64,000 nucleotides of DNA from an uncultured delta proteobacterium (GCA_963793865.1 CAWCBP010000001.1:463457-527456), one strand, 5' to 3'. Positions 5,166-64,000 are shown, numbered from the stretch's first letter. Numbers and translations are program-made. The notes: generated by a model not told the origin, from the sequence alone.

Positions 5166-5553
5166 AGCCGGTTGCCGGTAATTCCTTCCCATTCCTTCTG
5201 CTCCATCCCCATCCAAAACTTTTCTCTTTTCTCCCGCCGGGTAATCGAGTATACAAATACAAGGGTACAGGGTTTAGGGTAAGGAGGAGTTGACAGTTGC
5301 CAGTTCACAGTTTGCAGGGTAAAGCTGCGTTGCAATTGTGCTGACCTCCTTCTCATTTCTTCGTATCACCCAAGTGATTTACATTGACATAAAGGTCATT
5401 CTGTGGCTTGACCACAGCATCCAGATGCAATTTTTCATTGGATCCTGCGATCAAGTCGCAGGATGACTTAAAAGGCATTTTGAGACAGTAGTATTAAGAT
5501 AATCCTCTCATCATTTCTCATTTGGAACATTTGATATTTGAATTTTGGGTTTG

Positions 5554-5577
5554 TTTCGGATTTCGTGCTTCGGATTT
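5554..5577. repeat. Copy of the AAATCCGAAGCACGAAATCC repeat (reverse orientation) in the 5' intergenic region of the AlkP-family gene
   Basis: TTTCGGATTTCGTGCTTCGGATTT is the reverse complement of 62100-62119 plus flank. Confidence 0.5.
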
Positions 5578-5631
5578 GATTCACAATCCAGTATCCAGCA
5601 TCATGTTTTTATAATCCCAGGGAATCATCGC

Positions 5632-16520: not shown

Positions 16521-16584
16521 GGGCTTTCTCCTCAGGCAGGCTTGTAGGCGCAAATCCGGAATTCGAAGCGAAATTCGAAAAAAT

Positions 16585-16735
16585 GACAAAGTTCAAATAA
16601 CAAAATCCAAATGAAAAGTGACAAAGCTCAAATGACAAAAAGTTCAAAACAAACCCGTTCGCTTGGCTGGTTTGATTATTGGTCATTTGTTTTTTTTCAT
16701 TGTTTTGAACTTTGCATTTTGCACTTTGACATTCA
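16585..16735. repeat. AT-rich imperfect long inverted repeat (about 45-nt arms) between the serpin and the NlpC/P60 gene
   Basis: The left arm ...GTGACAAAGCTCAAATGACAAAAAGTTCAAAACAAA and the right arm TTTGTTTTTTTTCATTGTTTTGAACTTTGCATTTTGCACTTTGAC are near reverse complements. Local GC is about 30%, against about 60% for the window. Confidence 0.5.
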
Positions 16736-18365: not shown

Positions 18366-20016
18366 TTATCCCGCGCTGCGGGATGCGGCGGCGATAAGCG
18401 CCTGCGCCTCCTCCTGGATGAGCCGCAGATGGTCTTCACCCTTGAAGCTTTCCGCGTACATCTTGTACACATCTTCAGTGCCGGACGGCCGTGCCGCGAA
18501 CCAGCCGTTTTCGGTGATTACCTTAAGCCCGCCGATGGAAGCGCCGTTGCCGGGGGCTTCGGTCAGGACGGCAGTGATCTTTTCCCCGGCCATTTCAGAA
18601 GCGGTGATGTGCCGGGGTGAAAGATGCTGCAGTGCCGCCTTAAGCTCGGGGGTTGCCGGCGCGTCGATCCGTTCATACACCGGGTTGCCGAAACGCCCGG
18701 TAAGCTCTGCATACAGTTCGCCGGGGTCGCGGCCGGTTACGGCGGTGATTTCCGCGGCCAGCAAATCCATGATGAAGCCGTCCTTATCGGTGGTCCAGAC
18801 GGTGCCGTCCCTGCGGACAAAGGCCGCGCCGGAACTTTCTTCCCCGCCGAACGCGCATGATCCGTCAAGCAGGCCGCCGACAAACCACTTGAACCCCACG
18901 GGGACCTCACTCAATTTTCTCCGCAGCGCGCGGGCAACCCTGTCGATCATGGAGCTGCTCACCAGGGTTTTCCCGATTGCGGCATCCTCCCGCCATCCCG
19001 GCCGGTTCCGGAAGAGATACCAGATCGCCGCCGAGAGGTAATGGTTGGGGTTCAGAAGCCCCCCGCTCCGGGTGACGATGCCGTGCCGGTCATAATCGGG
19101 ATCGTTGCCGAAGGCGATGTCATACTTGTCCCTGAGCCTGATGAGGCCGGCCATGGCAAAGGGGGACGAGCAATCCATCCTGATTTTTCCGTCCCTGTCC
19201 ACGGTCATGAAGCTGAAGGCAGGATCGGCAAACCCGTTAAACACATCGATGTTTAATTGGTAACGCTCGGCGATGGGCTCCCAGAATGCGATGCCGGACC
19301 CTCCCAGGGCGTCCGCACCTATCTTCAGACCCGGCGGACTGCACGGCATCGAGGTCGATACAATGCCTGAGATCATCCACATAAGGGGTAATGTAGTCAT
19401 ATGCGCGGGTTGTGTCCGCGCGCACCGCCTTCGCGCAGGGGATCCTGCGCACATGCTTATTGTTGCCGGCCAGCAGTTCATTGGCTTCTTTTTCAATCCA
19501 GCCGGTGGTGGCGGTATCGGCAGGGCCTCCGTGCGGAGGATTGTATTTGAAACCTCCGTCATCCGGTCCATTGTGAGAAGGGGTGATGACAATGCCGTCA
19601 GCCGGGTGCGGTTTATTGCCCCGGTTGTAGCCGAGAATGGCGTGCGAAATAACCGGGGTAGGGGTGTAGCCCGAATCCATGTGCACCATCACCTCGATGC
19701 CGTGGGCGGCAAGCACTTCCAGGGCGGTGGAATGGGCCGGCTCGGAGAGCGCATGCGTGTCCTTGCCCAGGAAAAGAGGGCCGGTGATGCGGTGAGCGAC
19801 GCGGTAACGGCAGATGGCCTCGGTGATGGCAAGGATGTGATCTTCGTTGAAGCTGCCTTTAAGCGAGGAGCCGCGGTGTCCGGAGGTGCCGAAGGCCACC
19901 AGCTGGCTTTTGACCTGCGGGTCCGGATGGCGGGTGTAGTATGCGCTCACCAATAGGGGGATATTGGTCAGCAGTGACCGGGGAACCTGTTTGCCTGCGA
20001 GGGGGTGAGGCTGCAT
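18366..20016 (-). CDS. pgm: Phosphoglucomutase (alpha-D-glucose phosphate-specific), split by an apparent single frameshift near 19330
   Basis: The upstream fragment carries GTSGHRG and [23 protein letters not shown]. The downstream fragment carries GGSGIAFWE...[12 protein letters not shown]...[23 protein letters not shown]. The two are colinear with E. coli Pgm and the frames switch exactly at the junction. Confidence 0.85.
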
Positions 20017-25791: not shown

Positions 25792-26683
25792 GTGGGTTCC
25801 TTAAACCCTTCCACTCATGGCAATTCCGCGGCGGAATGCCGGCTGCGGCTGGAGTGCGGGAGCTACCGCCTCGACTTCAGCAGGCGAACCCATATCATGG
25901 GCATCCTCAATGTGACGCCCGATTCGTTTTCCGACGGCGGCAGATTTTTTGACCAGGGGCGTGCCGTGGATCACGCCCTGCGCATGGCGGACGAGGGTGC
26001 CGACGTCATCGACATCGGCGGGGAGTCCACCCGGCCGGGCGCCCGGCCTGTTTCCCTTGAGGAGGAGCGGCGAAGGGTGCTGCCGGTGATTGAGCGGCTT
26101 GCCGCCCGGATCCGGATACCCCTTTCGGTCGACACGGCCAAGGCGGCACTTGCGGCTGATGCCGTCAACGCAGGCGCCGTCATCATCAACGATGTCAGCG
26201 CGCTTCGCTCGGATCCGGAAATGGCGCCGCTGGCCGCCCAATGCGGTGCTGCGGTGGTGCTGATGCACATGCGGGGGACGCCGCAGGACCATGCAGCGGC
26301 AGGTCCTGTACCATGATGTGATCGCTGAGATCCATGCCTTCTTCCGGGAGCGCATCAGCGCCGCCCTGGCAGCAGGGATCGGTGAGCGGAGGATCATGAT
26401 CGACCCCGGCATCGGTTTCGGCAAATCGGTGCCCGAGGGGAATCTCTCCCTGCTGAAGCACCTCGGCTGCTTTACAGCGCTCGAAAAGCCCCTTCTGGTC
26501 GGCCCCTCGCGGAAGGCCTTCATCGGTGAGGTGCTCGGCCTTGGCCCGGGCGAGAGGGAGGAGGGGACCGCCGCTGCGGTTGCCATCGCCATCGCCAACG
26601 GCGCCGCCATGGTGAGGGTGCATGATGTCAAGGTGATGAAGCGGGTGGCCGCCATGGCCGACGCCATCATGGCCGCCGGCTGA
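25792..26683 (+). CDS. folP: Dihydropteroate synthase, with an apparent 1-nt insertion frameshift at about 26287
   Basis: GILNVTPDSFSDGG...LMHMRGTPQ then (shifted) TMQRQVLYHDVIAEI...DPGIGFGK...GPSRKAFIG. The start codon is uncertain. Confidence 0.8.
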
Positions 26684-50330: not shown

Positions 50331-51080
50331 ATGTCTAAGAGTACGAGGATGAAACCAGGCGCAAAGAAGAGCTCACAAAAAAAGGCTTCGTCTCCTGCGA
50401 CTGCTCAAGCGCCCCAGGCTGCGGCCCCGGGCTCATGGGCGGGCAGCAGCAAGGCCATGTTTGAGCTCATGATCAAGGAGGTGCCGGAATCGCTGCAGGA
50501 TGTGTTCCGGGTGAAACTGATGGATATACTCGGGCAGAAGGCGAAGGGCGGTGCCTACCAGGAAGCCCAGGTTGTGGAGATCGTCAATGAAATCGTGCCC
50601 GAGCCGTTCAAGTCCAACATCCTCAAGGGTTTCGCCACCATGGGGGGTGTTGACATAAGCCTGGTTGAAGGCATCGTGGCTTCATATCCCGGCGGCCAGG
50701 AATCCGTCCCCGCCATACTTCACGCCCTGAAGGCCAAGTTCGGCCATGTGCCGGAAGAGGCGCTGCGGGTGGTGAGCCAGAAGAAAAATGTGTTCATGAG
50801 CACCCTCTACCGGCTGGTGACCTCATTCACGGCGTTCCCAACCGATTTGCCCAGGAAATACACGGTGAGCGTCTGTGACGGCACGGGGTGCCACCTCAAG
50901 GGCAGCGCTTCAATGCTGAAAAAGCTTGAGGAGAAAGCGGCCTCGCCGGACGCGGACATTAACTTGGAAAAGGTGAGATGCCTGGGCTGCTGCGACCTTT
51001 CGCCCGCGGTGCTGGTGAACGGTGAAATGTACAGCGGTGATGATGCCCATGCCAAGATTTCAGAAATGTTAGGTGAATGA
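50331..51080 (+). CDS. NuoE/HoxF-N-like [2Fe-2S] thioredoxin-fold electron-transfer subunit with N-terminal extension
   Basis: VSVCDGTGCHLKGS and RCLGCCDLSPAV cysteine pattern. About 100 extra N-terminal residues with a Lys-rich start. Confidence 0.7.
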   Translation: MSKSTRMKPGAKKSSQKKASSPATAQAPQAAAPGSWAGSSKAMFELMIKEVPESLQDVFRVKLMDILGQKAKGGAYQEAQVVEIVNEIVPEPFKSNILKGFATMGGVDISLVEGIVASYPGGQESVPAILHALKAKFGHVPEEALRVVSQKKNVFMSTLYRLVTSFTAFPTDLPRKYTVSVCDGTGCHLKGSASMLKKLEEKAASPDADINLEKVRCLGCCDLSPAVLVNGEMYSGDDAHAKISEMLGE

Positions 51081-51093
51081 TAAAGGGGAGTCT

Positions 51094-52804
51094 ATGAAAC
51101 AGGATAAACCGCTTGACCTGAACGCGATACAAAAGAAGGGGCTCAGCATGCTGGCGCCGGCGCGTGCCCGGATTACCGTCGGCATGGCAACCTGCGGATT
51201 GGCCAAGGGCGCGGGGAAGATTTTTGAAGCCCTGAAGTATGAGATCAAGAAGCAGAAAGCCAAGGCTGACCTGGTGGTGGTGGGGTGCAACGGCCTTTGC
51301 TATGCCGAACCCATTGTTGAAGTGATCTGCCCGGGAAAGCCGCGCATCACCTATGGCCGGGTGAGCGTGGAACGGGTTCCTGACCTGGTGGCCTCGGTGG
51401 CAAAGGGAGGCGTGGTCAAGGATCTGGCCCTGATGAGGATGGACCGGTTAACCGCGGAAGGCGGTGCATCGATCAAATATGCCGGGGCGAAGGTCCCCAA
51501 GGACGCGGCCGCGCTCAAAGAATGCGGGAAGCTTGATTTTTTCAAAAAGCAGATGAAGCTCATCAGCAAAAACGCCGGAACGGTCAGCCCGGAGCAGGTT
51601 GAGGAATACTGCGCGCTGGGCGGCTACCAGGCGCTGCTGAAAGCCGTTACCTCCATGAGCCCGGATGAGGTCATCAGGGAAGTAACCGTGTCCAAGCTCC
51701 GCGGCCGGGGCGGCGCCGGATTCCCGGCGGGCATTAAGCTGCAGGCATGCCGTCAGGCGGCCGGGGATGCCAAGTACATTGTCGCCAACGGCAGCGAAGG
51801 CGATCCCGAAATCGGCATGCACCGGAGCTTTCTGGAATCGGATCCCCACGCGGTCATAGAGGGGATGGCCATCGCCGGCTACGCGGTGGGTGCATCGGAA
51901 GGCTACATTTATTTGAATGACCGGTACCAGGTGGCCCACGAGCGGCTCACCCGGGCCATCGAGGGGGCGGAAGCCCTGGGACTTATCGGGAGCAATATAG
52001 CGGGTTCGGGATTTTCTTTCTCCCTGCGGGTGAAGCGGGGAGGAGGCGCGTACGTGTGCGGCGAGGAAACGGCGCTGCTCAACGCGCTGGAAGGCTCGTT
52101 CGGCGAGCCGAGACCGCGGCCCCCGTATCCCGCGGAGAGCGGGCTTTTCAACAAGCCCACCGTGGTCAACAATCTCGAGACCCTGGCAACCATTCCCGCC
52201 ATTATCGCCGGGGGCGGGGAAGCGGTACGCGGGCATCGGCACGCCGGGCAGCACCGGCACGAAAATCGTGGCCCTGTCCGGGCATGTGGCCAGGAGCTGC
52301 TGGGTGGAGGTCCCGCTGGGCATGGAGATCGGGGAGATCATTGAAACCTTCGGCGGCGGCGCCGCCAACGGAAAGAAGATAAAAGGTTTCCAGGCGGGAG
52401 GCCCGTCAGGCGGCATTCTGCCGGCCAAACTGCTGAAGATCAAGCTTGACTACGATCGCCTGGCCAAGGAAGGAAGCCTGCTGGGTTCGGGCGGGCTGGT
52501 GGTCATGGATGAGGATACTGACCTGCTGGAGATGGCAAAATTTTTCACCGACTTTTTTGCCGACGAGTCCTGTGGAAAGTGCAGCATCTGCAGGGAAGGC
52601 ACCAAGCGGCTCCAGCAGATCATCACTGATGTGATGGAAGGGCAGGGAACAAGCGAGCACATCGCCCTGGTCAAGCGCCTGGCATCAGCACTGTCGGATA
52701 CCGGCGCCTGCGCCCTGGGCAAAACCGCAGCGGTGCCCTTTATATCGGTGCTCAACCATTTCCCGCAGGTGATCGAAGGCAAACTGCTCAGGAAGAAAGC
52801 GTAA
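51094..52804 (+). CDS. NuoF-like NAD(H)-binding FMN/[4Fe-4S] flavoprotein subunit with N-terminal thioredoxin-like domain, carrying an apparent frameshift at about 52225
   Basis: GRGGAGFPAGIKL, then after the frame switch GTKIVALSGHVARSCWVEVPLG and the 4Fe-4S motif ESCGKCSICREG. Confidence 0.8.
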
Positions 52805-52844
52805 GGTCATAAACGGCGTAGCGATACGAGAGAGGATGATATTT

Positions 52845-53783
52845 ATGGTGAGCTTAAAGATAAATGGAAGGAAGATAAAGGCAGCGGAGGGCATGACCAT
52901 CCTTCAGGCGGCGCGGGTCAATGACATTGAGATACCCACGCTGTGTTCGAATGACGCGCTCAAGCCCTATGGCGCCTGCCGCCTCTGCGTGGTGGAGATC
53001 GGGAAAAACGGGAGGGTGACGGTGGACACATCCTGCACCTACCCGGTGAGCGACGGGCTGGAGGTGCAAACCAACACCCCCCGCATCAGGGAAGCGCGCA
53101 AGATGATTCTCGAGCTCCATCTGGCGCGCTGCCCCAACGTGCAGATTGTCCAGGAGCTGGCCGCGGAGTACGGGGTGACCGAAAGCGCCCAGCAGATGGG
53201 AAAGGATAATGAGTACTGCATACTCTGCGGGCTGTGCGTCCGCGCCTGCAACGACGTGGTCAAGGCGGGCGCCATCCAGTTTGCGGGACGCGGCCCGGGC
53301 AAGATGGTGGACTCGCCCTTCAGCAAGACCGCGGATGACTGCATTGCCTGCGGCTCATGCGCCTTTATCTGTCCCACCGGCATCATCAAGAAAAATGACC
53401 TGTTTTCCACCGCGCTCTGCACGCCGGACGGATGCGATCAAACCGGCCCGCAGCGCGAGATCCTGAACTGGAAGGTGGAGCACAAACTGAAGTGCTGCAA
53501 AAAGTGCGGCAATCCCTACGCGCCGGAGCCGCATCTGGAAAAGGTGAAGCGGGAAAAGAATCTGCCCAATGAATTTTTTGACATCTGCCCCTCGTGCCGG
53601 CAGTATCCGGTGGTTGACCCGGACAAGTGCCTGGGCTGCGGCGGCTGCATGGAGAACTGCCCCTGCGGCGCGCTGGAGCTCGAGGACAAGGGCGGTTATG
53701 ATAAAAAGGCGCAGCTCTATCCGCAGAACTGCACCGCCTGCCACAGCTGCGAGCTCATCTGTCCCATGCAGGCCATCAGCTAG
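52845..53783 (+). CDS. NuoG-N-terminal-like [2Fe-2S]/[4Fe-4S] iron-sulfur subunit (ferredoxin-type and His-ligated cluster domains only; no molybdopterin or H-cluster domain)
   Basis: I.INGRKI......TILQAA...IEIPTLC....L.PYGACRLCVVEI, CILCGLCVRAC, CIACGSCAFICP and CLGCGGCMENCP. Confidence 0.7.
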   Translation: MVSLKINGRKIKAAEGMTILQAARVNDIEIPTLCSNDALKPYGACRLCVVEIGKNGRVTVDTSCTYPVSDGLEVQTNTPRIREARKMILELHLARCPNVQIVQELAAEYGVTESAQQMGKDNEYCILCGLCVRACNDVVKAGAIQFAGRGPGKMVDSPFSKTADDCIACGSCAFICPTGIIKKNDLFSTALCTPDGCDQTGPQREILNWKVEHKLKCCKKCGNPYAPEPHLEKVKREKNLPNEFFDICPSCRQYPVVDPDKCLGCGGCMENCPCGALELEDKGGYDKKAQLYPQNCTACHSCELICPMQAIS

Positions 53784-53832: not shown

Positions 53833-55131
53833 ATGACGGTTTACGATCTTGCCATTGTGGGCGCCGGTCCCGGAGGTGTGCATGCTGCCAAGTGGGCGGC
53901 CAAGAAGGGGCTCAAGACGATTCTCATTGAGAAGCGCAAAGACATCTCCAAAATCACCCGTTACTGCAGCGAGCATTTGATACTCGATGAAGGCTATAAC
54001 GGGGATACGGTTTTGGTGGATCCTAAAAAAGGCACCATCACCTCGACGGCGAACGGGTGGGTGGTTGACTATAAAGGCGGTTTGTTCCCCTGCATTGATA
54101 AATGGTACTACTCTCCCAAGGGCAGGGCCATCCACTTCGCCTGGCCTGACCGGCGGCCGTATGCCTACAAGTACGACAAGGGCTTTCTGCTGGGGAGCCT
54201 GCTCGAGGAATGCCTGGCGCTGGGGGTCACCTTCCAAAATGAAACCAGCGGCTATGACGCGGTCGACAGCGCCCAGGGGGTCGAGATCAAGTGCGTGAGC
54301 AGGGGAAAGAAGGAGAAGGTGAAGGCGAAAAAGCTCATCATCGCCGACGGGTGCAACACCCGCCTGGGGCAGGCAATGGGTTTCAACGCCAGCCGCGGTT
54401 ACATGGGCTTTGCCCTGTGCATGGCCAGCTACATGTCCGGCGTGAAGAAATACAACCCTGAAGAATGGGTGCTCTGGTACGGCAGGTGCTACGGCTCAAA
54501 TCTCGCCCCCATCATCGGCACCGGGCCGGCCGGCCATTTTGAGGACTGGGCGGATGTGATCAACCTCGGCAGCCCCCGGGACCTGCCGGTGGAGGCATTT
54601 GGCCGGTTCACCAAAAACAGTCCCATAGCCGACCGGTTTGCAAACGCCAAGGTTGAAGAGCGGTACTGCTGTTCGGTCAAGGCCTTTACCCCCATTGCCC
54701 GTCCCTATAAAAGTAATACTATAATTATAGGAGATTCTGCCGCGTTTGTTGAAGTGCAGGGTCAGGGGGCTCTGAGCTGCGGTTATAAGGCCGCGGAGGC
54801 GGTTGCCAGGGAACTCAAGGGTGAAAAGGGGTTCGAGGAATACGCCGACTGGTGGCTTAAATCGTTTGAGTTCAATGACAAGGGGATGATGCAGGTGCAG
54901 CAGGGATATGCCTTTGTGCCCACCTATACCGATGACGAGCTTGACTACCTTTTCGGCCTGTGTGAGGACGTGCTCCTGGACGGGAGCTTCAGCCAGTACA
55001 AGTCATCCCGGATGATATGGGACGCAATCCTGCGCGACCCGAAGAAAATTGAGCGGGAACACCCCGCCACCTATGCAAAAATCAAGAGCGTCCGCAGCAG
55101 CACCCTTGAAAGCAGCCTCAAGGACGGCTAA
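53833..55131 (+). CDS. FAD-dependent oxidoreductase, geranylgeranyl-reductase-like fold
   Basis: YDLAIVGAGPGGVHAAKWAAKKGLKTILIEKR dinucleotide-binding motif. About 430 aa. AAGGAGGAAG RBS. Confidence 0.65.
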   Translation: MTVYDLAIVGAGPGGVHAAKWAAKKGLKTILIEKRKDISKITRYCSEHLILDEGYNGDTVLVDPKKGTITSTANGWVVDYKGGLFPCIDKWYYSPKGRAIHFAWPDRRPYAYKYDKGFLLGSLLEECLALGVTFQNETSGYDAVDSAQGVEIKCVSRGKKEKVKAKKLIIADGCNTRLGQAMGFNASRGYMGFALCMASYMSGVKKYNPEEWVLWYGRCYGSNLAPIIGTGPAGHFEDWADVINLGSPRDLPVEAFGRFTKNSPIADRFANAKVEERYCCSVKAFTPIARPYKSNTIIIGDSAAFVEVQGQGALSCGYKAAEAVARELKGEKGFEEYADWWLKSFEFNDKGMMQVQQGYAFVPTYTDDELDYLFGLCEDVLLDGSFSQYKSSRMIWDAILRDPKKIEREHPATYAKIKSVRSSTLESSLKDG

Positions 55132-55206: not shown

Positions 55207-56388
55207 CTAGAAGCGGTACATCACGGTGGGGGCGATGGCGAAAAGACCGGAAAAATTTGATCCCATGTCCAGCACCAGCTGAAATGACGGCGACAGTTCG
55301 ATGTTGGTTCCAATGTGCGTGCTCCACGGTTTCGAGGTCTTCTCCCGCACCCTGAACTTGACCGTACCCAAAACCGGAACGCGGGGGTCCCCCTTTATGG
55401 TGTTGGTGGTATCCCAGTAGGTTTCCCCCAGCCAGAGGTTGAGCTTACAGTCAGCCGCCTGCGTTCTCCAGCCGAGGCGGACGGAGTTCAGCATCGCCTT
55501 CACATCAGGGCTCAGGCTGTTGCCCAGGGGAATATTTCCCTGCAGCGCGCTGATGGTGTAATTCCAATCGTATGAGGCAAAGAATTTTTTATATCCCCCG
55601 ACGAGGGTGTAACCCACGCCGTAGGTGACGCCGGTCAGGTCAATGTGTATGTCAAGATCCCGGGGGTGTTTGCCAAACCGCTTGCGCAGGCGATCGTAGG
55701 GGGCAAGGCCTACTGAAGCATCGGCATCCTCGCGGGTGTACCCGAACAGCCCATAGACGTTCAAAAAGGGGAACAGCCAGGCGTCAAGGCGCAGCGCCCA
55801 GTTCAGCTCCCTGCTCTTCACCTTGATGTCGGTCAGCCCGTCCACGGCAATGGCCCGGCCCTTGATGGAAACCTGCGCGTCGCTCACGCTGATGTGCCGC
55901 CTGCCGTGATAGAAACTCGGCATTACTCCGAAGGCAAGGGGAAGGGTATGCCCCTTTGCTTCAGCCTCCTCTCCTAAAATCGGTAAAATCGTTTGCCATT
56001 TATGTGACGGGTTTGACCCCCCGGTGCCGGCGTCGTCAGCGGCAGCATCAGGTGCAGCGGCCTGCCGGTGCGCATCACCGTTCTCCGCGTTCTGTGCAAT
56101 CATGCTGCTCAGCCGCAGCTGCAACGGGTCTGAAGTTTCTGTTTCGTCAAAGAGAGGAAGCCGTGAGTGCGGTTTAATAACGCCATTCTCCTGTAATGGC
56201 GTATCCTCGATTATTGCTGCATGATTGGACAGCACCGGTTCATTTTCTGCCGACACGATAAGAGGCCGGATGATAATCATGGATAAAATAAAAATGGCGC
56301 ACCTGCACAGACTGCACAACGTCTCAAAGCGCGCGCCTGAATGAGTCCCGGATGTTTTTATCGGAGGGTATGGAAAGCACATTATCAT
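55207..56388 (-). CDS. Putative outer-membrane beta-barrel protein (porin-like)
   Basis: C-terminal ...TVMYRF with a terminal Phe and alternating amphipathic beta-strand patterns. Hydrophobic signal-like segment near the N-terminus. The start is uncertain. Confidence 0.5.
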   Translation of the reverse strand: MIMCFPYPPIKTSGTHSGARFETLCSLCRCAIFILSMIIIRPLIVSAENEPVLSNHAAIIEDTPLQENGVIKPHSRLPLFDETETSDPLQLRLSSMIAQNAENGDAHRQAAAPDAAADDAGTGGSNPSHKWQTILPILGEEAEAKGHTLPLAFGVMPSFYHGRRHISVSDAQVSIKGRAIAVDGLTDIKVKSRELNWALRLDAWLFPFLNVYGLFGYTREDADASVGLAPYDRLRKRFGKHPRDLDIHIDLTGVTYGVGYTLVGGYKKFFASYDWNYTISALQGNIPLGNSLSPDVKAMLNSVRLGWRTQAADCKLNLWLGETYWDTTNTIKGDPRVPVLGTVKFRVREKTSKPWSTHIGTNIELSPSFQLVLDMGSNFSGLFAIAPTVMYRF

Positions 56389-56694: not shown

Positions 56695-57462
56695 ATGGCA
56701 AAGGTAGCATGGAATGAGATGACTGCGTTCGCAAAAGTTATTGTGGAGGATTACAAGCTGTTTGAAGGACTGGAGCTGGTGCCGCTTGAGACCTACCAGG
56801 GCATGGACACCAGGCCGGCCTGGGAGTTTAAAACCCCCATGGCCACCGGCTTCTACAAGCCGTACCTCATCAAGGGAAGCGACCGGATCGAGAAGATCAC
56901 CATCGGGGAGCTGCATTACATGGGACGGGCCAAGTACTGCGCCCTGAACATGACCGCGAGCAACGATTACGACCTGCCCATCTATGCCTGCGAGTTTGAC
57001 GAGACGGCGCCGCGGGTGGGCGTGACCATGGATTTAATGCCCACGGTGGACATCGCCCGGCACGAGGAGTACCTGCAAAAATACTACCGGGAGATAGCGC
57101 CGCTGTGGCGGAAGTACCGAACCATACCCGGATTTACCCTTGAAGGCCGCTGTCTGGTGCAGAGAAGGTACGCGCCCTGGCCCTGGGCGCGCGAGTCGCT
57201 CTCTCCCTTCAGCCTTGACGGGCGGGTGGAGGAGAAGGAGGACCGGGTGAAGCTGATGGAGGCGGTGGTGGCCTATGCCCGGGTGTGGCTTAACCTGCTG
57301 AAGAAGGCGGAGCCCATCCGGGATGAGGGGTACCGGCAGGAGATGCTGCGCAGAAAAAGCAAAACCCAGAAATATTACCGCGATCTTGACCCGGGCGGAG
57401 AGGTGATGAAAAAGATTTTCGGCGCGGAAAAAAGCCACCTCTTCGTGAGCCTTGTCTTTTAA
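56695..57462 (+). CDS. Hypothetical protein, paralogue A; weak resemblance to ferredoxin-dependent bilin reductase (FDBR/HY2) family
   Basis: RBS GAGAGGAG. YDLPIYACEFDE...VGVTMDLMP resembles the FDBR motif LP.FG.D.V....AI.DLSP. Paralogous to the next gene. Confidence 0.35.
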   Translation: MAKVAWNEMTAFAKVIVEDYKLFEGLELVPLETYQGMDTRPAWEFKTPMATGFYKPYLIKGSDRIEKITIGELHYMGRAKYCALNMTASNDYDLPIYACEFDETAPRVGVTMDLMPTVDIARHEEYLQKYYREIAPLWRKYRTIPGFTLEGRCLVQRRYAPWPWARESLSPFSLDGRVEEKEDRVKLMEAVVAYARVWLNLLKKAEPIRDEGYRQEMLRRKSKTQKYYRDLDPGGEVMKKIFGAEKSHLFVSLVF

Positions 57463-57475
57463 AGGAGGTAGAGAA

Positions 57476-58204
57476 ATGGATGCAGGCGTAAAATGGACAC
57501 CCTATCTGGAAAAAATGAAGGGATTGATTGATTCGCTGCAGCCCACCGCGCTTCAGGAGTGGAAGGGGCAGAATCTTGCGCCCGCCCTGGAGTTTGCCAG
57601 GGGCCAAGCGCGGGGAGGGTTCAGCGCATACCGCGCTGACAAGCTGGAAAAAATAGGCATCGGCTCATTTGTCCATGCCGGCAACAGGCACTTTGCCTTC
57701 TGCAGCATCATGCCCGGGGAAGCCTATGACCTGCCCCTGTTTCTCTCGCGTCTCGATGAGGGGCCGGAGGAGGTCATTTTCCTGGTTGATATCATCCCCG
57801 CGGTGGACAGCCTGGTGGATGAGGAATACCGCAAGAAGTATATCGAGTCGGTGCAGCCCCTCTGGGACCGGTTTGCCGCCCTGCCCGGCATCTGTCCCGA
57901 GGAAAGCGATGTCATCCGCTCACTCGCCTCCATCATTTACACCGCGGCCCGGGTTCCCATCGAGAAGGAGGGGATGCGCCTGGCGGCCCTTGCCCCGCAC
58001 ACTGAATATCTCAAGAGCTACCTCGCGTTTCTTCCCGAGGCGGTGCCGGTTACCGATGAGGCGAAGAAAAAGGAGCTGGCGGCAAAACGCGCGGCGCTGC
58101 GCGCAACCCTGCGTGCCCATTTTTTCAAGGAAATGCTGCCGGGTCCGGCACGGGAAGAACTGGGTGATGGCATGATCGAACTGCTTAATGCTGTCTATTT
58201 TTAG
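57476..58204 (+). CDS. Hypothetical protein, paralogue B of the preceding gene (FDBR-like?)
   Basis: RBS AAAGGAGG. YDLPLFLSRLDE...IFLVDIIPAVD...PLWDRF parallels paralogue A (YDLPIY..EFDE...TMDLMP...PLWRKY). Confidence 0.35.
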   Translation: MDAGVKWTPYLEKMKGLIDSLQPTALQEWKGQNLAPALEFARGQARGGFSAYRADKLEKIGIGSFVHAGNRHFAFCSIMPGEAYDLPLFLSRLDEGPEEVIFLVDIIPAVDSLVDEEYRKKYIESVQPLWDRFAALPGICPEESDVIRSLASIIYTAARVPIEKEGMRLAALAPHTEYLKSYLAFLPEAVPVTDEAKKKELAAKRAALRATLRAHFFKEMLPGPAREELGDGMIELLNAVYF

Positions 58205-58217
58205 GGAGGGATGAGAC

Positions 58218-58628
58218 ATGTCGGTTATGGAAATGCTTGCGGCAGGAGCCGATTTTACCAACGCGGATGAAACGGCGCAGGGGATGATGGCTGATTTCAG
58301 CGACCACAAGGTGGGCATGAAGCTTGACGCGGACGAGTTCACCCAGGTGGTAAAAGACGGCAAGCTCTATCTGGAGCAGGGGATCCGCGAGGACTGCCAC
58401 GTGGTGCTGAAGCTGAAAACGGCCGATCTCTGCAGCGCCATCGACAACACCTTCGATCTCATGGAAATCAAGGACAAGGGGGAGCTGTTGAAGGGCGATA
58501 TGACCGATCCCAACGTTCCCGTCCACCTCATGGCCACCTTTCCCTTTTTCGATGCCATGGTCCGGCTGTATGAATCCGATCCCCGCTTTAAAAAAATGGT
58601 TGATGAGGTTAAGTCTACTTTGGGATGA
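58218..58628 (+). CDS. Small protein, possibly SCP2 sterol-carrier-like lipid-binding fold
   Basis: 136 aa with the pattern ...HVVLKLKTADLCSAIDNTFDLMEIKDKGELLKGDM.... A weak call. Confidence 0.3.
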   Translation: MSVMEMLAAGADFTNADETAQGMMADFSDHKVGMKLDADEFTQVVKDGKLYLEQGIREDCHVVLKLKTADLCSAIDNTFDLMEIKDKGELLKGDMTDPNVPVHLMATFPFFDAMVRLYESDPRFKKMVDEVKSTLG

Positions 58629-58640
58629 GGTGCCCTGCAT

Positions 58641-58847
58641 ATGGTGAAACATCTGGTCGATCTGGAAAAGTGCCGCGGCTGCGGGCAGTGCCTTGAGCAG
58701 TGCGGACTGGAACTGTGGGTTCTGGTGGAAACACCGGACGGAAAGAAAAAAGCCAAGGCAATCGAAGAGGCGGGCATGATCTGCCACTGCTGTCTTTCCT
58801 GCCAGGACGCCTGCCCGGAAAAAGCGATCACCATTCTTGACGAGTAA
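58641..58847 (+). CDS. 2x[4Fe-4S] ferredoxin (68 aa)
   Basis: CRGCGQCLEQC and CHCCLSCQDACP motifs. Confidence 0.65.
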   Translation: MVKHLVDLEKCRGCGQCLEQCGLELWVLVETPDGKKKAKAIEEAGMICHCCLSCQDACPEKAITILDE

Positions 58848-58924: not shown

Positions 58925-60273
58925 ATGCCCAGGGAATATGATCTGGTGGTGGTCGGCGCGGGGCCTGCCGGTTTGATGGCCGCCAAAACAGCAGCCGAAC
59001 ACGGGCTGAGCGTGGCCCTGATCGAGCGGAAAGAGCACATTACTGATATCAACCGTGCCTGCAGCATGATGGTGGTGACCCTGACCGGGAAATATCTGGA
59101 GGAGCGGGTACGCTTAAACAGCCGGGACAGGAAGCTTTGCTTCCCGGGATACGGTTTTACCGTCAACTATGACGGCCCCCACCGTGACTTTTACACCTGG
59201 GCCATATACTCCCACCGGGGCAACAAAATTCAGCTCGGCAACTATGAAGAGAACGAGCGCAAGGGCGAGAGCGGCAGGGTGAGCGCGACGTACGATAAGG
59301 GGGCGCTGCTGCGCTGCCTCCTGGAGGAGGCCCGCGCCCTGAAGGTTGATGTCTACAACCCGTATAATGTAATCCGGACCGATCTGCAGGGAGGCAGGGT
59401 GACGGTTTTCACCCGCGAGGGAAGATCCTTCAGGGGCACCTTCGTCATCGCCGCCGACGGTCGCGCCTCCAGAATAGCCCACACCCTGGGCTGCAACCGG
59501 GATCGGAAGTATTTCGGCACTGCGGTGACCCTGGGGTATGAAATGGTGGGGGTAAAGCCGCCGGAAAAATTTGCCCTCTTCCAGATATTTCTCGACGAGA
59601 CACCTTCCAAGCGGGTGTGGATGACGCCGCGGACGACGAAGGACACCTACTTCGTCATGACCACCTCGCTCACCCCCGGCGCAGACCTCGCGGGCGCCTT
59701 TGAGCGGTTTTCGAAAAAGGGTTTTTTCGCGCTCCTGGTTCGAAAAGGCAGAGATAAAGCGCACCCTGACTTCCGCGGGCAACGCGCTCTCACACATAGT
59801 CGATCCCTACAAGGACCAGGTGCTGCTTGTCTCCGACGCGGTGTGGTGCCAGGAGGCGGAGATGACCGGGGCGGTCATCAGCGGCTGGAAGGCGGCCAGC
59901 TGCCGTCAGCTTCGCCCTGGCCGATGGAAAGATATCGCGGGAAGGGGTTTCATCCTACCTCCGCTGGTGGAAAGAAGAGGTGCTGGATAAATACGATTAC
60001 CGGAGCATGATGCGCAATGCCGTGCTTCCCCTCCGGCTCACCCCTGACGAGATTGACTTCGTGCTGAGCCTGGTTAAAAAATCACTGCCCAGCATCCTTG
60101 ATCCTTATGAGACCCCCAAGCTGGTCGGCGGCGCCCTGGCGGAGATAATGCCGGCCGTTGCCAAACAGCGGCCCGCCATTCATCAGAAGCTTGCAGGGAT
60201 GCGCAATGTGCCGCTGGCCGCCGTTTTTGACGGATGCATCAGGGCGGGCTTCCCCATGCAGGCCCGCGGCTAG
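58925..60273 (+). CDS. FAD-dependent oxidoreductase (geranylgeranyl-reductase-like), paralogue of 53833-55131, with two apparent frameshifts (about 59722-59727 and about 59895-59905)
   Basis: YDLVVVGAGPAGLMAAKTAAEHGLSVALIERK. The C-terminal half is recovered in three frames colinear with paralogue 1 (AFERFSKK / SRSWFEKAEIKR...PYKDQVLLVSDA...GWKAA / SYLRWWKEEV...). The first shift is at a T6 run. Confidence 0.7.
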
Positions 60274-60369: not shown

Positions 60370-62101
60370 ATGATGCGCAATGAGCATGACTCCTCCGCTG
60401 AAAAGAAAAAAATAATTCCGGCACGGCTGCCGGAGGGAATGTACCAGGCATTGGAAGCATGTCGTTGGCAAGGAGTGGATTTCCCGCGACCGGGCGGTTC
60501 TGGAAACCTACAGCAAGCTCTCGCTCGACGCGGAAGGGTTTTTAAAGAAGCACGCCCGGAACGGCTCAAGCATTCCCGCCTGCGTGGTGCTGCCGGGCGG
60601 CACCGATGAAGTGCGGTCCGTGGTGAGGATCGCCCGGCGATACCGGGTTCCCGTCATACCCTTCACCAACGGCCAGATGATGAGCGCCCCCACCTTTCCC
60701 GTTCCCATGCTCTGCATTCACCTGAGCCGGATGAACCGGGTGCTGGCCATCGATGAGCAGCTCATGACGGCCACGCTTGAACCCTATGCGGACTACGGGC
60801 AGCTTCTGGCCGAGGCTGCAAAAGTGGGGCTCTGGAATGGAGGGACGCCGCTGGCAACCACCCTGTGCAAGCTTTCGTCCCAGGTGGCCTTTGCGGGCAT
60901 CTGGCAGACCAGCAAGAAATACGGCCTGCTGGACAGAAACATCGTGGACATAAAGCTGGTGCTGCCCACGGGTGAAATCATGAGCACCGGTTCCCCCGCG
61001 GTTGCGGGCGTTGACCGCGTATGGGAGAGCGGACCGGGCCCTGACCTCACCGGGGTGGTGCGCGCCAGCGCCGGGACCACCGGCATCATTACCGAGGTGA
61101 CCGTCAAGCTGCACACCTGGGTCGGCGGGGAGCTGATGCCGGAACCGCGGGCGGGAAGGCCCTGCATTCCCTGCTATGCCGATGAGCGCTACGACCATGC
61201 CCCCGCGCCGCCCCGGCACCGCATCCACTGGATAGAGTTTCCCGACTGCGAATCCGAAATCAGGGCATACCGGGCCATCGCCCACGCGGGCATCGGCATC
61301 GGGCTCAATGCCTCGGGGGTGTATTCCTCCTATTACTGCTCCCCAACCCAGAAAATGACCGAGGAGCGGGCGACGGGCAATTTTTTCCCCGCCTTCAACC
61401 TCTATGTCATCTGCGCGGGCATCGTATCAGAGGGCCAGCTGGCCTATGAGGAAAAGGTGCTCAGGGAGATAGCGGAAGAGCAGGGCGGCAGGTTTCTCTC
61501 CCGCGACCATAAGCCGGAGGTGCTGCAGGCGCTCGCCCCGTGGAACCTGGACTGCATCAGGAATGTCTGCGGCTATCGCATGAACCGGCGCATGTACGCG
61601 GGCGGGAGCCTTCCCGCGGGTCCGCCCGAGGTGGCCCTCTATCACAGCCGGCTCTGGCGTGAAGTGCTCGAGCGCTTCGGTGAGACGCACGTCACCGACC
61701 GCGGAGGGGCGGAAACGACCCCCTTTGTGTACGGCATAGAGCCGGCGGGGCGCTACACCCTCTCGGAGACGGATATCTACCCGGATCCGATGGACCCTCA
61801 TTCGCTGGAACAATGCGTCGCCATTACCATGTACAGCGCGGTTAAAAATGGCGCCGAGCGGCACTGCGCGCCCTTCGGCTTCGGCGGTCCGGCTGAACCA
61901 TTGGTCACCTTTTTCCCCGAGCAGGGTCCCAATGTCCATCTCCTGCTGAGAAAATTAAGAAAGGTCTTTGACCCACAGGGCATCTGCAGCCCCGGCAGGC
62001 AGGTGCTTACCGAGGAAGAGCTCAAGGAATATCCGGCGGAGGCGGTTGCCAGACTGAATGAACTGCGGAAGTTTTTTAACATGGGCACGATTGAAAGGTA
62101 A
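60370..62101 (+). CDS. FAD-linked oxidase (FAD-binding PCMH/GlcD-type fold), paralogue 1 of 3; N-terminus carries an apparent frameshift at about 60458
   Basis: The N-terminus MMRNEHDSSAEKKKIIPARLPEGMYQALE continues, after a shift, as DVVGKEWISRDRAVLETYS...CVVLPGGTDEVRSVVRIA. This is colinear with paralogue 3 (KAKVIPNRVSREVFQALQDVVGPEWISEDRAV). The start codon is uncertain (60316 or 60370). Confidence 0.6.
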
Positions 62102-62243
62102 ATCCGAAGCACGAAATCCCTGAGATATGGGATATGCGATTTGTGATATGGGCTGAAAAATATTTTTTAATCCCAAATCACAGATCTCACATCACACATC
62201 AGTATGTAGTTTCGGATTTCGATATTCGGATTTCGGATTTGAG
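62100..62243. repeat. MITE-like intergenic element with terminal inverted repeats (AAATCCGAAGCACGAAATCC ... GGATTTCGGATTTCG...)
   Basis: A 20-nt arm identical (as reverse complement) to 5554-5577. Internal partial palindromes. Lies between two paralogous oxidase genes. Confidence 0.5.
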
Positions 62244-62326
62244 TATCGGGGGTTGCCCAGCCTGCTGTTGAATTACGTGTTACGGGACTCACATGACCAA
62301 GCCTGAAAACTGCCTCCTATTAGTGC

Positions 62327-62355
62327 TTGACTAATGAGGGCTGATTCACTATAGA
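62327..62355 (+). promoter_or_regulatory. Sigma-70-like promoter (TTGACT, 17-nt spacer, TATAGA) for FAD oxidase paralogue 2
   Basis: Consensus-like hexamers with 17-nt spacing, about 35 nt upstream of the ATG at 62389. Confidence 0.4.
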
Positions 62356-62388
62356 TACCCAATCGGAATACATCAAGGAGAACCGTAT

Positions 62389-63861
62389 ATGGCGCTGACA
62401 CGGAAACAGCTGGTGGATATTTTTGGCGATAAGCGGGTTATGGACGATGCCGCAACGCTTGAGGCATATTCCCATGATCAGTCCTTTGCGCCGAAACGCA
62501 TGCCTGATTTTGTGGTGTTCCCCGGGACGGTCGAGGAAGTGCAGCGGGTGGTGAGGCTGGCCAATGAGACCCGGACCCCGCTCATTCCCTACAGCTCGGG
62601 ATTGAATTTTCATGGCGCGGCCCTCCCCGACCACGGCGGGATAATCGTCAACCTTTCGCGCATGAACAGGATCATTCAGATCGATGAAGAGAACTGGTCC
62701 GCGGTAATTGAACCGGGGGTTACCTATGCGCAGCTCCAGGCCGCCCTGATGGAAAAGGGATTCCGGGTGATGATTCCATTCGGCGTGCCCCCCGGGCGTT
62801 CCGTGCTTACCAGCTTCCTGGAACGGGATCCGGTCATGGCGGCGCCCAGCTTTGAATCGGGCAATTTTCTCATCATGGACACCGAGATGGTGCTTCCCGA
62901 CGGCGAGCTGTTTAAAACCGGCACATGGTGCGCGGGGGGCGCTCCGGGAGGACCGCTGGGCCCGGTGAGAAACGTCATCTTCCGCCTCTGGACCGGCGCT
63001 CAGGGCACACTCGGCATCATGACCAAGATGAATGTCAAGATTGAGCCTTTTATCAAGGAACGGAAGATGTATTTCTTAAGCTTCAACGCGCTGGCTGATG
63101 CACGTGAGCCTTTGAAAAGGATACAGCGGAGGGAAATCGGCCTGGAGTGCTTTCTCCTGAACCGGTTTAACCTGGCTTCCCTCGTGAGCCATGAGTGGGC
63201 GGTGCCGGATACATTCCCCGCCGCACCCAAACCTTCCGAGAGCTTTGAACGATACCGGGGCATTCTCCCGGCCTGGGTGCTGGCACTCTGTATTATCGGT
63301 GCGCCCAGACATCCCGAGGAAAAGATTGCCTATGAGACAGAGGCATTACAAGAGGTGTGTCACGGTCTTAATGTCGAAGTTAAAGAAACCATTCCCCAGG
63401 TGAGCGGGTTGAGCCGGCTGATGCTCAACGAGATTCTTTATCCCTGGGGTATTCTCAAGAAATTCAATTACCGGGGATCGGTGCACAGCCTGAGCTTTAA
63501 ATGCTCGCTGGGGTCGCTGGCGGAGATGGAAGAGATTGTGCGGAACGAGTGCGAAGCGGCCGGTTACAGCGTATCTGCTTTCGGCGGTTACCTGCTCCCG
63601 CTGGAACGGGGCAGGGCGGTGCACTGTGAGTTTGACCTCCACTGTGACCTGAAGAATGATCCGGAAGCCCGGAACGTTAAGAACCTCTGGACCGGGACCG
63701 CGCAGACACTGATCAACCACGGGGCATATTTTGACCGTCCTTACGGGCCGTGGGCGGAAATGATCTATGGGCGGGCGGGTGAGTATACCACCAAGCTTCG
63801 GCAGATCAAGCAGGAGCTTGATCCCAACGGCATTCTCAACCCCGGAAAATTGTGCTTCTAA
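62389..63861 (+). CDS. FAD-linked oxidase (FAD-binding PCMH/GlcD-type fold), paralogue 2 of 3
   Basis: VVFPGTVEEVQRVVRLANETRTPLIPYSSGLNFHGAALP...LSRMNRIIQIDEENWSAVIEPGVTYAQL (FAD_binding_4-like). The C-terminal ...LDPNGILNPGKL is typical of this superfamily. Confidence 0.7.
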   Translation: MALTRKQLVDIFGDKRVMDDAATLEAYSHDQSFAPKRMPDFVVFPGTVEEVQRVVRLANETRTPLIPYSSGLNFHGAALPDHGGIIVNLSRMNRIIQIDEENWSAVIEPGVTYAQLQAALMEKGFRVMIPFGVPPGRSVLTSFLERDPVMAAPSFESGNFLIMDTEMVLPDGELFKTGTWCAGGAPGGPLGPVRNVIFRLWTGAQGTLGIMTKMNVKIEPFIKERKMYFLSFNALADAREPLKRIQRREIGLECFLLNRFNLASLVSHEWAVPDTFPAAPKPSESFERYRGILPAWVLALCIIGAPRHPEEKIAYETEALQEVCHGLNVEVKETIPQVSGLSRLMLNEILYPWGILKKFNYRGSVHSLSFKCSLGSLAEMEEIVRNECEAAGYSVSAFGGYLLPLERGRAVHCEFDLHCDLKNDPEARNVKNLWTGTAQTLINHGAYFDRPYGPWAEMIYGRAGEYTTKLRQIKQELDPNGILNPGKLCF

Positions 63862-63891
63862 ATTCTGAAGGCTTGTAAGAAAGGATGATCT

Positions 63892-64000
63892 ATGTCAGAG
63901 CCCAAAGCAAAGGTAATCCCCAACAGGGTTTCACGGGAAGTCTTCCAGGCGCTGCAGGATGTGGTGGGCCCCGAGTGGATTTCGGAAGACCGTGCGGTTA
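63892..64000 (+). CDS. FAD-linked oxidase paralogue 3 of 3, 5' fragment (continues beyond the window)
   Basis: MSEPKAKVIPNRVSREVFQALQDVVGPEWISEDRAV parallels the N-termini of paralogues 1 and 2. RBS AAGGATGA. Confidence 0.55.
   Translation, partial: MSEPKAKVIPNRVSREVFQALQDVVGPEWISEDRAV

Follow-up and report, generated by a model that had tools for sequence, protein, structure and literature searches.

Three tandem genes at the 3′ end of a 64,000-nucleotide stretch of DNA from an uncultured delta proteobacterium (GCA_963793865.1 CAWCBP010000001.1:463457-527456; hereafter the window, with positions counted from its first letter) encode flavoproteins of the VAO/PCMH superfamily. We consider it somewhat probable (about 0.55) that their products assemble, as two types of subunit, into a single heteromeric flavoenzyme, which would resemble in layout the "Magic" flavoprotein of anaerobic benzene degraders, use other electron partners, and act on a hydrophobic substrate. 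The genes, here called c1, c2, and c3, are of two types, 490-type (c2-like, ~490 amino acids [aa]) and 570-type (c1/c3-like, ~570 aa), and are arranged as follows:

60370 to 62101, plus strand: c1, a 570-type VAO/PCMH-superfamily flavoprotein gene (576 aa, 63.8 kDa, once one inserted base near 60458 is removed)
62389 to 63861, plus strand: c2, an intact 490-type (PCMH-like) VAO-superfamily flavoprotein gene (490 aa, 54.8 kDa)
63892 to 64000, plus strand: c3, the first 36 codons of another 570-type gene, which runs past the window end

The sequence-only reading, an earlier inspection of this DNA by a model, had described three tandem FAD-linked paralogues with a FAD_binding_4-like core, and that description holds: all three are FAD_binding_4 genes on the same strand. 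The PF01565 (FAD_binding_4) profile matches c1 at 74.5 bits (residues 69-206) and c2 at 89.8 bits (residues 39-177), against a cut-off of 26.4. For c3 the assignment comes from intact orthologues in other assemblies, whose orthologous and related loci, labelled L001, L005, L006, and so on, we used for comparison, an exact look-up of c2 in public assemblies having given no record. The c3 fragment has 33 of 36 residues in common with the 570-aa genes lying 3′ of the c2 orthologue in L001 and L006, and these genes carry PF01565; the mass of the c3 orthologue is 63.1 kDa. The N-terminus KxKxIP...EWIS.DRAV, which had been ascribed to all three copies, is common to c1 and c3 and is not that of c2, which starts MALTRKQLVDIFGDKRVMDD.

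Structure prediction, which had been proposed as a way to find the cap domain, gave a complete two-domain VAO fold (FAD-binding plus cap) for both c1 and c2 (AlphaFold mean pLDDT, 73 for c1 and 85, with AF2, for c2). In single-sequence searches of c1 and c2 against solved structures, the FAD domain alone was matched. A profile of 40 c2-family sequences, however, aligned full-length to the PCMH flavoprotein PchF (E 1.8e-35), and Foldseek placed the c2 model at TM 0.73-0.79 to vanillyl-alcohol dehydrogenase, eugenol oxidase, PCMH, and mouse LDHD; the 570-type profile gave matches limited to the FAD domain and the last helix. PF02913 (FAD-oxidase_C) matched c2 at 21.8 bits against a cut-off of 21.2, over the last 21 residues only (profile positions 228-248), and did not match c1 in the Pfam scan, so that this profile covers the cap domain of neither protein. 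The likeness of c2 to PchF and the 4-phenol VAO group (VAO, eugenol oxidase, vanillyl-alcohol dehydrogenase) thus lies in the full-length profile alignment and the TM scores, and also in the stretch equivalent to the GlcD motif, which in c2 is of the PCMH type.

In PCMH, Tyr95, Tyr473, and Arg474 form the phenolate-binding triad, and the covalent flavin link is made by Tyr384 in PCMH or by His422 in VAO. In the PchF profile alignment, in which a one-residue shift is possible, Tyr95 and Tyr473-Arg474 align with c2 His75 and Asp449-Arg450, and Tyr384 aligns, in uncertain register, with Phe359. By this alignment c2 lacks the Tyr-Tyr-Arg triad, with His75 and Asp449 at the positions of PCMH Tyr95 and Tyr473, and is PCMH-like in architecture yet without these defining residues of 4-phenol oxidases. 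Of the covalent-FAD positions, to which the sequence-only reading had drawn attention, that of Tyr384 may not be kept; the nearly invariant His366, 6-7 residues past Phe359, lies near the place expected for VAO His422, again in uncertain register. Further differences from the 4-phenol group are an identity of only 18-24% and the lack of a PchC-like cytochrome c subunit gene, no cytochrome domain being found in the open reading frames (ORFs) scanned at 44-64 kb. The c2 family conserves E406, R407, R409, H412, and H418; conservation of H412 and H418 does not imply equivalence to the His/His/Glu metal site of D-2-hydroxyacid dehydrogenases. Relatives of c2 form more than 120 clusters at 56-94% identity, all of ~490 aa, and a search of 1.84 billion representatives with the 570-type profile yielded only 181 clusters at E <= 1e-30, the close 570-type family being one 50%-identity cluster. 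c1 and c2 belong to the VAO/PCMH superfamily but to no characterised subfamily.

The two gene types travel together. One scan of species-representative genomes returned 585 relatives of c2, all from uncultured genomes; most are from Thermodesulfobacteriota, and others are from Chloroflexota/Dehalococcoidia, Asgard archaea, Bathyarchaeia, Thermoleophilia, Syntrophorhabdales, and Thermincola. Of 85 loci with a 490-type gene, 73 also hold a 570-type homologue, and this co-location spans Thermodesulfobacteriota, Chloroflexota, Asgard archaea, Bathyarchaeia, and Thermoleophilia. At 53 of 80 genome-scan loci, a GlcF/HdrC-like iron-sulfur (Fe-S) gene (420-430 aa, with CxxCxxC and CCG motifs) lies 3′ of the 490-type gene, usually between the 490- and 570-type genes where a locus holds both. 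Even relatives at 53-56% identity to c2 have it; the window and the examined loci at or above 57% identity to c2 do not. All 490-type proteins have the signature GA[FY]F[SD]RPYG.WA and an H..E motif. The Fe-S-less clade that includes c2 is marked by SSG.N.HGA, GSVHDL, and LERGRA.HCEFDLHC, where proteins of the FAD/Fe-S/FAD triad type have SSG.PHFRGDT, GGCQ[DE]IFF, and QP..QG..CHCEF. In Fe-S-less relatives the gene directly 3′ of the 490-type gene is often (L013, L014, L016-L019, and L024) a homologue, 25-29% identical, of a 432-aa Pyr_redox/GGR-like (geranylgeranyl-reductase-like) flavoprotein encoded in the window, and such a flavoprotein may stand in for the Fe-S subunit as electron partner. 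One metagenome-assembled genome (MAG), SRP192927_co7_52, holds at least four separate 490/570 pairs (L006, L012, L038, and L071; 86%, 62%, 35%, and 33% identity to c2); the family has multiplied into many paralogous systems within single organisms.

The gene order of the distant relatives recalls two recently described benzene degraders. No proteins of the methanogenic benzene degrader ORM2a ("Candidatus Anaerobenzenivorax") are more abundant than #24-26 (WAC08368.1-WAC08370.1), two FAD-binding oxidoreductases with an (Fe-S)-binding protein between them in the gene order; AlphaFold 3 modelling assembles the three into a GlcDEF-like heterotrimer, whose identity to GlcDEF does not exceed 23%, and a second highly expressed cluster, "Nanopod," encodes porin-like, DUF1329, and Ycf48-related proteins and an MMPL transporter (Toth et al. 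2026, PMC13101534). About one-fifth of the proteome of the sulfate reducer BzS1 consists of the proteins BzS1_12970/80/90 (54.5/46.5/65.8 kDa); BzS1_12970 has a FAD-binding and an oxidase C-terminal domain, BzS1_12990 has a FAD-binding domain only, and other functions are ascribed to homologues (23-42% identity) from organisms that do not degrade benzene (Musat et al. 2026, PMC13416013). Compared by published layout, sizes, and domains, the window likewise has two unlike VAO/PCMH-type subunit genes side by side. The products are of similar size (54.5/65.8 kDa in BzS1 versus 54.8 kDa for c2 and 63-64 kDa for c1 and the c3 orthologue), and the Pfam content matches, the smaller subunit (c2) having FAD_binding_4 with a trace of FAD-oxidase_C and the larger (c1) FAD_binding_4 only. 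The likeness extends to the hosts, which are strictly anaerobic Desulfobacterota, to the association with Ycf48/BNR-MMPL-DUF1329 "Nanopod" genes, here seen in relatives' loci, and to the exact FAD/Fe-S/FAD gene order in distant relatives of c2. In contrast to Magic, the window has no HdrC/GlcF-like Fe-S gene, either between the VAO genes or elsewhere in the 64 kb; it has bilin-reductase-like, GGR-like, ferredoxin, and NuoEFG-like genes instead, and two alternative large-subunit genes (c1 and c3), and the c2 clade has conserved motifs of its own. A cluster look-up of ten candidate 570-type representatives returned neither WAC08368.1/WAC08370.1 nor a BzS1 accession among its entries. The window genes appear to encode a new form of a known, though little-characterised, type of enzyme, one that lacks the Fe-S subunit and has its large subunit in duplicate.

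The genes upstream of c1 include those of the candidate electron partners:

50331 to 51080, plus strand: NuoE-like gene (domain scan)
51073 to 52804, plus strand: NuoF-like gene, frame-split (domain scan)
52836 to 53783, plus strand: gene for a NuoG-N-terminal-like Fe-S protein (domain scan)
53833 to 55131, plus strand: gene for the 432-aa Pyr_redox/GGR-like flavoprotein (domain scan)
56695 to 57462 and 57476 to 58204, plus strand: two ferredoxin-dependent-bilin-reductase-like genes (PF05996, E 7.9e-14 and 4.8e-5)
58218 to 58628, plus strand: gene for a 136-aa protein without an assigned family
58641 to 58847, plus strand: gene for a 68-aa 2x[4Fe-4S]-type ferredoxin (Pfam scan)
58925 to 60273, plus strand: gene for a FAD flavoprotein of the geranylgeranyl-reductase family (GGR-like; TIGR02032, 76.6 bits, under the cut-off; 448 aa in L001)

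The first four genes are probably a NADH/ferredoxin electron-supply module, and the pair of NuoG-like and flavoprotein genes recurs beside distant VAO pairs in L020, L043, L044, L053, and L081. The bilin-reductase-like pair, the 136-aa protein, the ferredoxin, and the GGR-like gene are conserved in L001-L006; orthologues of the 136-aa protein and the ferredoxin occur in L001 and L005, with 78-90% identity given for the two together. The 136-aa protein had no Pfam or PDB match, and an SCP2-like identity suggested by eye was dropped for want of support from either. Nanopod-type genes (PSII_BNR/Ycf48, MMPL, DUF1302, and DUF1329) lie directly 3′ of the 490/570 pair in L001, L005, L007, and L008 and flank distant 490/570 pairs in more than 10 loci. 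Relatives also encode an HTH-cupin regulator downstream of the pair. The sequence-only reading had missed this conserved cluster, as it had the two-subunit-type logic and a frameshift in c1.

Taken together, these data point to a mechanism in which c2, the PCMH-like 490-aa subunit, would form a heteromeric flavoenzyme with either c3 or c1, these being two old alternative versions of the ~570-aa subunit (~63-64 kDa). The heteromer is suggested by gene adjacency and, by analogy, by the published ORM2a AlphaFold 3 model. The c2/570-type pair would follow the gene layout of GlcDEF-like heterotrimers (FAD, HdrC-GlcF-like Fe-S, FAD), with the Fe-S subunit lost in the window clade; electrons would pass instead by way of the 68-aa ferredoxin, the GGR-like flavoprotein, and the NuoEFG-like module, and could be given to or taken from these ferredoxin-linked partners. 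The enzyme would act on a hydrophobic compound taken up through the Nanopod-type envelope system. In this scheme the homology, the fold, the age of the copies, the adjacency, the conserved cluster, and the missing Fe-S gene are observed, and the complex, the path of the electrons, and the type of substrate are deduced from them.

Several observations weigh against this two-subunit interpretation. Adjacency alone is no proof of a heteromer. Over the whole 64-kb window the best tblastn match to an HdrC/GlcF-like Fe-S gene has E = 3.4, and no CoA-transferase, MaoC, or AMP-ligase neighbours, a further difference from Magic, were seen in the window ORFs scanned. The Nanopod-type genes, which in close relatives lie beyond the point where the window ends, are not visible inside it. 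Given the differing conserved positions, the chemistry of the c2 clade may differ from that of the triad-type proteins. ORM2a #26 shows only 26-29% identity to distant MAG homologues (Toth et al., PMC13101534), and the role of the GlcDEF-like Magic flavoprotein as a benzene enzyme is itself a proposal (PMC13101534, PMC13416013).

A different view, unlikely in our judgement though by no means far-fetched, is that c1, c2, and c3 encode three independent enzymes, self-sufficient homo-oligomeric VAO-type dehydrogenases with their own substrates, and that their adjacency reflects a common pathway. Consistent with this view, both predicted models have the complete two-domain VAO fold, the flavin-loop motif G..G..G[IL][IM]T is kept in both c1 and c2, and mean column identity is 67-70% over the whole length in both the 490-type and the 570-type families, as fits catalytic proteins rather than scaffolds. 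Three separate enzymes would not, however, readily account for the adjacency of 490- and 570-type genes at 73 of 85 loci, which come from different phyla and from both bacteria and archaea, for the single Fe-S gene that the pair usually brackets in the manner of GlcD/GlcF/GlcE, or for the modelling of the ORM2a homologues as one complex.

The anaerobic activation of inert hydrocarbons, above all benzene, is a long-standing open problem, and the two 2026 papers implicate a GlcDEF-like flavoprotein whose chemistry is undefined (PMC13101534, PMC13416013). The locus described here suggests that both flavoprotein subunits are members of an old and extensive family found in many uncultured anaerobes, bacterial and archaeal, and that a whole clade does without the Fe-S subunit, having recruited different redox partners; comparison of residues between the clades, together with the simpler two-gene version, could reveal what the flavoprotein core does alone. 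A bolder extension of the two-subunit interpretation, speculative and rather unlikely, is that the window clade is an undescribed Fe-S-free, two-subunit version of the suspected benzene-activating flavoenzyme family. With the bilin-reductase-like pair and the GGR-like flavoprotein as radical-type, ferredoxin-dependent reductases, and with Nanopod uptake, it might then carry out a new anaerobic attack on an inert hydrophobic compound (an aromatic or polyunsaturated hydrocarbon or a lipid). The best PDB match of the bilin-reductase-like proteins is phytochromobilin synthase (E 1.6e-8), and the pair recurs in relatives (L001 6249-7759, L005 447-1959, and L006 3938-5442). Pre-PcyA clusters contain heme oxygenase, V4R, and globin genes (Rockwell et al.); none of these was found in the window ORFs scanned, and a literature search for bilin-reductase homologues in Desulfobacterota gave nothing relevant. 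In this non-photosynthetic sulfate-reducer lineage the substrate may not be a bilin, which hints at non-bilin substrates for that fold.

The frame breaks in the cluster raise the question of whether the locus is being lost. The ATG start of c1 is at 60370 and its end at 62101, and the gene is split between frame 1 (60370-60457), in which the N-terminus MMRNEHDSSAEKKKIIPARLPEGMYQALE is read, and frame 2 (60461-62101), in which the continuation VVGKEWISRDRAV... is read from 60461; the only start-bearing ORF within it is 60584-62101. Dropping one base in GAAG[C]ATG near 60458 rejoins the frames, and nucleotide alignment shows a single extra base relative to L005. The corrected protein is 95% identical to P0121, an intact 573-aa metagenomic protein, and 79% identical to the product of the intact 567-aa gene of L005. 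Two single-base insertions, one near 59731 and one near 59898, break the GGR-like gene into three frame pieces, which show 83-88% identity to the intact counterpart in L001. Elsewhere in the window, ftsH is split (23792-24904/24684-25634), folP (25792-26316) ends early, covering only positions 1-132 of 244 of Pterin_bind, and glmM (18366-20016, minus strand) is split into two ORFs. With the NuoF-like gene, there are at least seven frame breaks in the 64 kb (ftsH, folP, glmM, nuoF-like, GGR-like, and c1); the other genes scanned elsewhere gave full-length domain matches.

It is improbable that these breaks mark a decaying locus, with c1, the GGR-like gene, and the NuoF-like gene as true pseudogenes of a pathway being lost. 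Four breaks do fall within 51-60.5 kb, and the three compared at the nucleotide level (59731, 59898, and 60458) are all single-base insertions in non-homopolymer contexts, unlike classical homopolymer sequencing error. The frame pieces nevertheless are still 83-95% identical to intact orthologues, and the idea of a decaying cluster was set aside once ftsH, folP, and glmM were found to be frame-split too. Because these housekeeping genes, which a free-living bacterium is unlikely to lose, are broken likewise, base-calling or assembly error is the simpler explanation. The frameshift in c1 is probably a sequencing error, and the window sequence probably comes from an unpolished, error-prone assembly.

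Less probable still is an ordinary, if divergent, glycolate, D-lactate, or D-2-hydroxyacid dehydrogenase system. The NCBIfam model glcD (TIGR00387) is the best model for c1 and c2; the best PDB matches include mouse LDHD and a "glycolate oxidase" entry; and distant 570-type relatives are annotated by their sources as "glycolate oxidase," as in the ten 557-588-aa representatives of the cluster look-up, which gave only generic "FAD-binding oxidoreductase/glycolate oxidase" MAG entries. The conserved Arg and His residues of c2 (within E406, R407, R409, H412, and H418) could bind a carboxylate. The glcD scores, however, are 71.5 bits for c1 and 90.9 bits for c2, against an equivalog cut-off of 567.9, and cover the FAD domain only, in line with the divergence from GlcD/D-LDH claimed by the sequence-only reading. 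A regular-expression search found no GGxVAxNAGG-like motif in c1, c2, or the c3 orthologue. The absence of GGNVA.NAGG had thus been noted correctly; its placement in the substrate domain had not, since the equivalent stretches (c1 residues 166-185 and c2 residues 138-158) lie within the PF01565 matches, which assigns the motif to the FAD-binding domain. The c2 profile aligns full-length to PCMH, not to LDHD; compared with mammalian LDHD and the D-2-hydroxyacid dehydrogenases, the sequence match ends with the FAD domain and neither the motif nor an equivalog-level score is found. Bilin-reductase-like and GGR-like neighbours and transport of hydrophobic compounds also fit poorly with the metabolism of small hydroxyacids.

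Escherichia coli GlcDEF does resemble the system in having two VAO-type flavoprotein subunits with a homologous FAD-binding domain and, in the wider family, a CCG-motif Fe-S subunit. It differs in the glcD score, which here is far under the cut-off, in the GGNVAxNAGG motif, and in the Fe-S subunit, which the window clade lacks. GlcE is a protein of ~350 aa, whereas the second subunit here has ~570 aa and, in the predicted model, a complete cap domain. As judged by these comparisons, c1 and c2 are not orthologues of GlcD or D-LDH.

The sequence-only reading had also proposed a recent local tandem triplication, with a MITE-like (miniature inverted-repeat transposable element-like) insertion as the mark of rearrangement. 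This is highly improbable: three homologous genes do stand in tandem, with an inverted-repeat element between c1 and c2 that is missing from the L005 spacer, but c2 is only 21-30% identical to c1 and to c3-type proteins, mostly in the FAD domain, and c1 only 55-58% to c3-type proteins, compared with 74-92% among orthologues of different genomes, and the element's arms are common to L006, with no target-site duplication evident. In a neighbour-joining tree, a c1-type clade (window, L006, L005, L009, and L011) stands apart from a c3-type clade (L001, L006, L005, L008, and L020), each holding members of several MAGs, and the 570-490-570 order recurs in L005 (74-79% identity) and L006 (86-92%), both Thermodesulfobacteriota assemblies; L001, L007, and L008 have 490-570 only. 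Because of the low identity of the paralogues, the separate clades, and the order common to L005 and L006, the triple arrangement is inherited and the copies are old. A collapsed or expanded repeat in the assembly was likewise ruled out by the divergence of the copies and their recurrence in independent assemblies. A separate acquisition of c1, suggested by higher GC at 60-62 kb, was discarded when c1 proved slightly GC-richer than c2 in all three genomes.

The intergenic inverted repeat reported between c1 and c2 is real, and one further trace of it lies in the window:

62100 to 62240: imperfect palindromic intergenic element, ~140 nucleotides (nt), beginning on the c1 stop codon, with arms of GAAATCC/GGATTTC heptamer-like units
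5520 to 5577, plus strand: solo right arm of the element family (TTTGAATTTTGGGTTTGTTTCGGATTTCGTGCTTCGGATTT), in a 470-nt spacer

The outer arms of the element (62100-62119/62214-62233, 20 nt) are 85% complementary and its inner arms (62124-62160/62164-62200) 78%, and its RNA fold has a z-score of -5.8. The recurrence claimed at 5554-5577 holds for one arm: the 20-mer GGATTTCGTGCTTCGGATTT is found exactly at 5558-5577 (plus strand) and 62100-62119 (minus strand), where shuffles expect 0 matches, and no partner arm is present in 5160-5640. The 64 kb thus contain one full element and one solo arm. At 90 nt the c1-c2 spacer is shortest in L005; that of the window has 288 nt and that of L006 443 nt. 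Both arms are missing from L005 and common to the window and L006 at the same position, the L006 interior being different and longer. Between the shared arms, L006 has a second, nested element at 9685-9810, with ends CAGGCTGTTGAAAAACA ... TGTTTTTGAACAGCCTG. Small insertions seem to favour the c1-c2 spacer. Because the arms are common to L006 at the same position, the insertion in the window is not demonstrably recent.

A metagenome scan for the element gave at least 120 contigs. The pattern used, GGATTTCGNNNTTCGGATTT, also picks plain (GGATTTC)n runs (75 of 168 occurrences, some within long ORFs), so that only the non-GAT variants count as evidence. With the plain runs set aside, the same kind of inverted arm pair occurs in at least nine contigs, 98-268 nt apart start to start, at 47-66% GC and beside unrelated flanking genes. 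The unrelated contig L118 has an identical arm pair, with TGC on the left and ATA on the right, and similar pairs occur in at least eight further contigs. Relatives include L118 14242-14382, L124 3467-3645, L141 968-1100, L144 13545-13832, L156 759-876, and L175 1450-1597, among others; the members in the window, L118, and L144 start exactly on the preceding gene's stop codon. The family consists of 100-290-nt hairpins from soil, peat, and sediment metagenomes with a 3-nt variable core (TGC, ATA, AGT, or AAT). Rfam has no family for the palindrome and gave only sub-threshold chance matches to microRNA hairpins. The element resembles repetitive extragenic palindromes, bacterial interspersed mosaic elements, and MITEs in being short, non-coding, dispersed, and intergenic, with inverted-repeat ends and a strong hairpin. 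It differs from them in the lack of an associated transposase, of a second full copy in 64 kb, and of a target-site duplication (flanks ...AGGT|AAATCC...GGATTT|GAGTA without a direct repeat), and in its arms, which are runs of the GGATTTC heptamer and not a unique terminal repeat; no named family was matched. The MITE-like label is therefore apt for the terminal inverted repeats and not for the missing duplication. We conclude that this is a genuine dispersed palindromic element, but it provides no evidence of recent rearrangement here.

Between the element and c2 lies a promoter-like region:

62319 to 62380, plus strand: promoter-like region 5′ of c2 (TTGACT 62327-62332, 17-nt spacer, TATAGA 62350-62355, ribosome-binding site AAGGAG 62375-62380)

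The arrangement TTGACT-17-TATAGA/TATACA and AAGGAG are conserved in the window, L006 (~9921-10001), and L005 (~9925-10001), suggesting that the region may function as a promoter; a consensus promoter scanner did not list it. The palindrome ATTAGTGCTTGACTAAT (62319-62335) overlaps TTGACT, is conserved in the window and L006 only, and is a possible operator.

The window holds two further genes of note. A 393-aa protein (55207-56388, minus strand) without a Pfam match has a signal-peptide-like start and the C-terminal ...MYRF and, to judge from these features, looks like an outer-membrane beta-barrel; it is conserved 5′ of the cluster in L001 and L006 at 65-68% identity. Farther upstream, at 15291-16589 on the minus strand, the window encodes a full-length bacterial serpin (PF00079, 416 bits).

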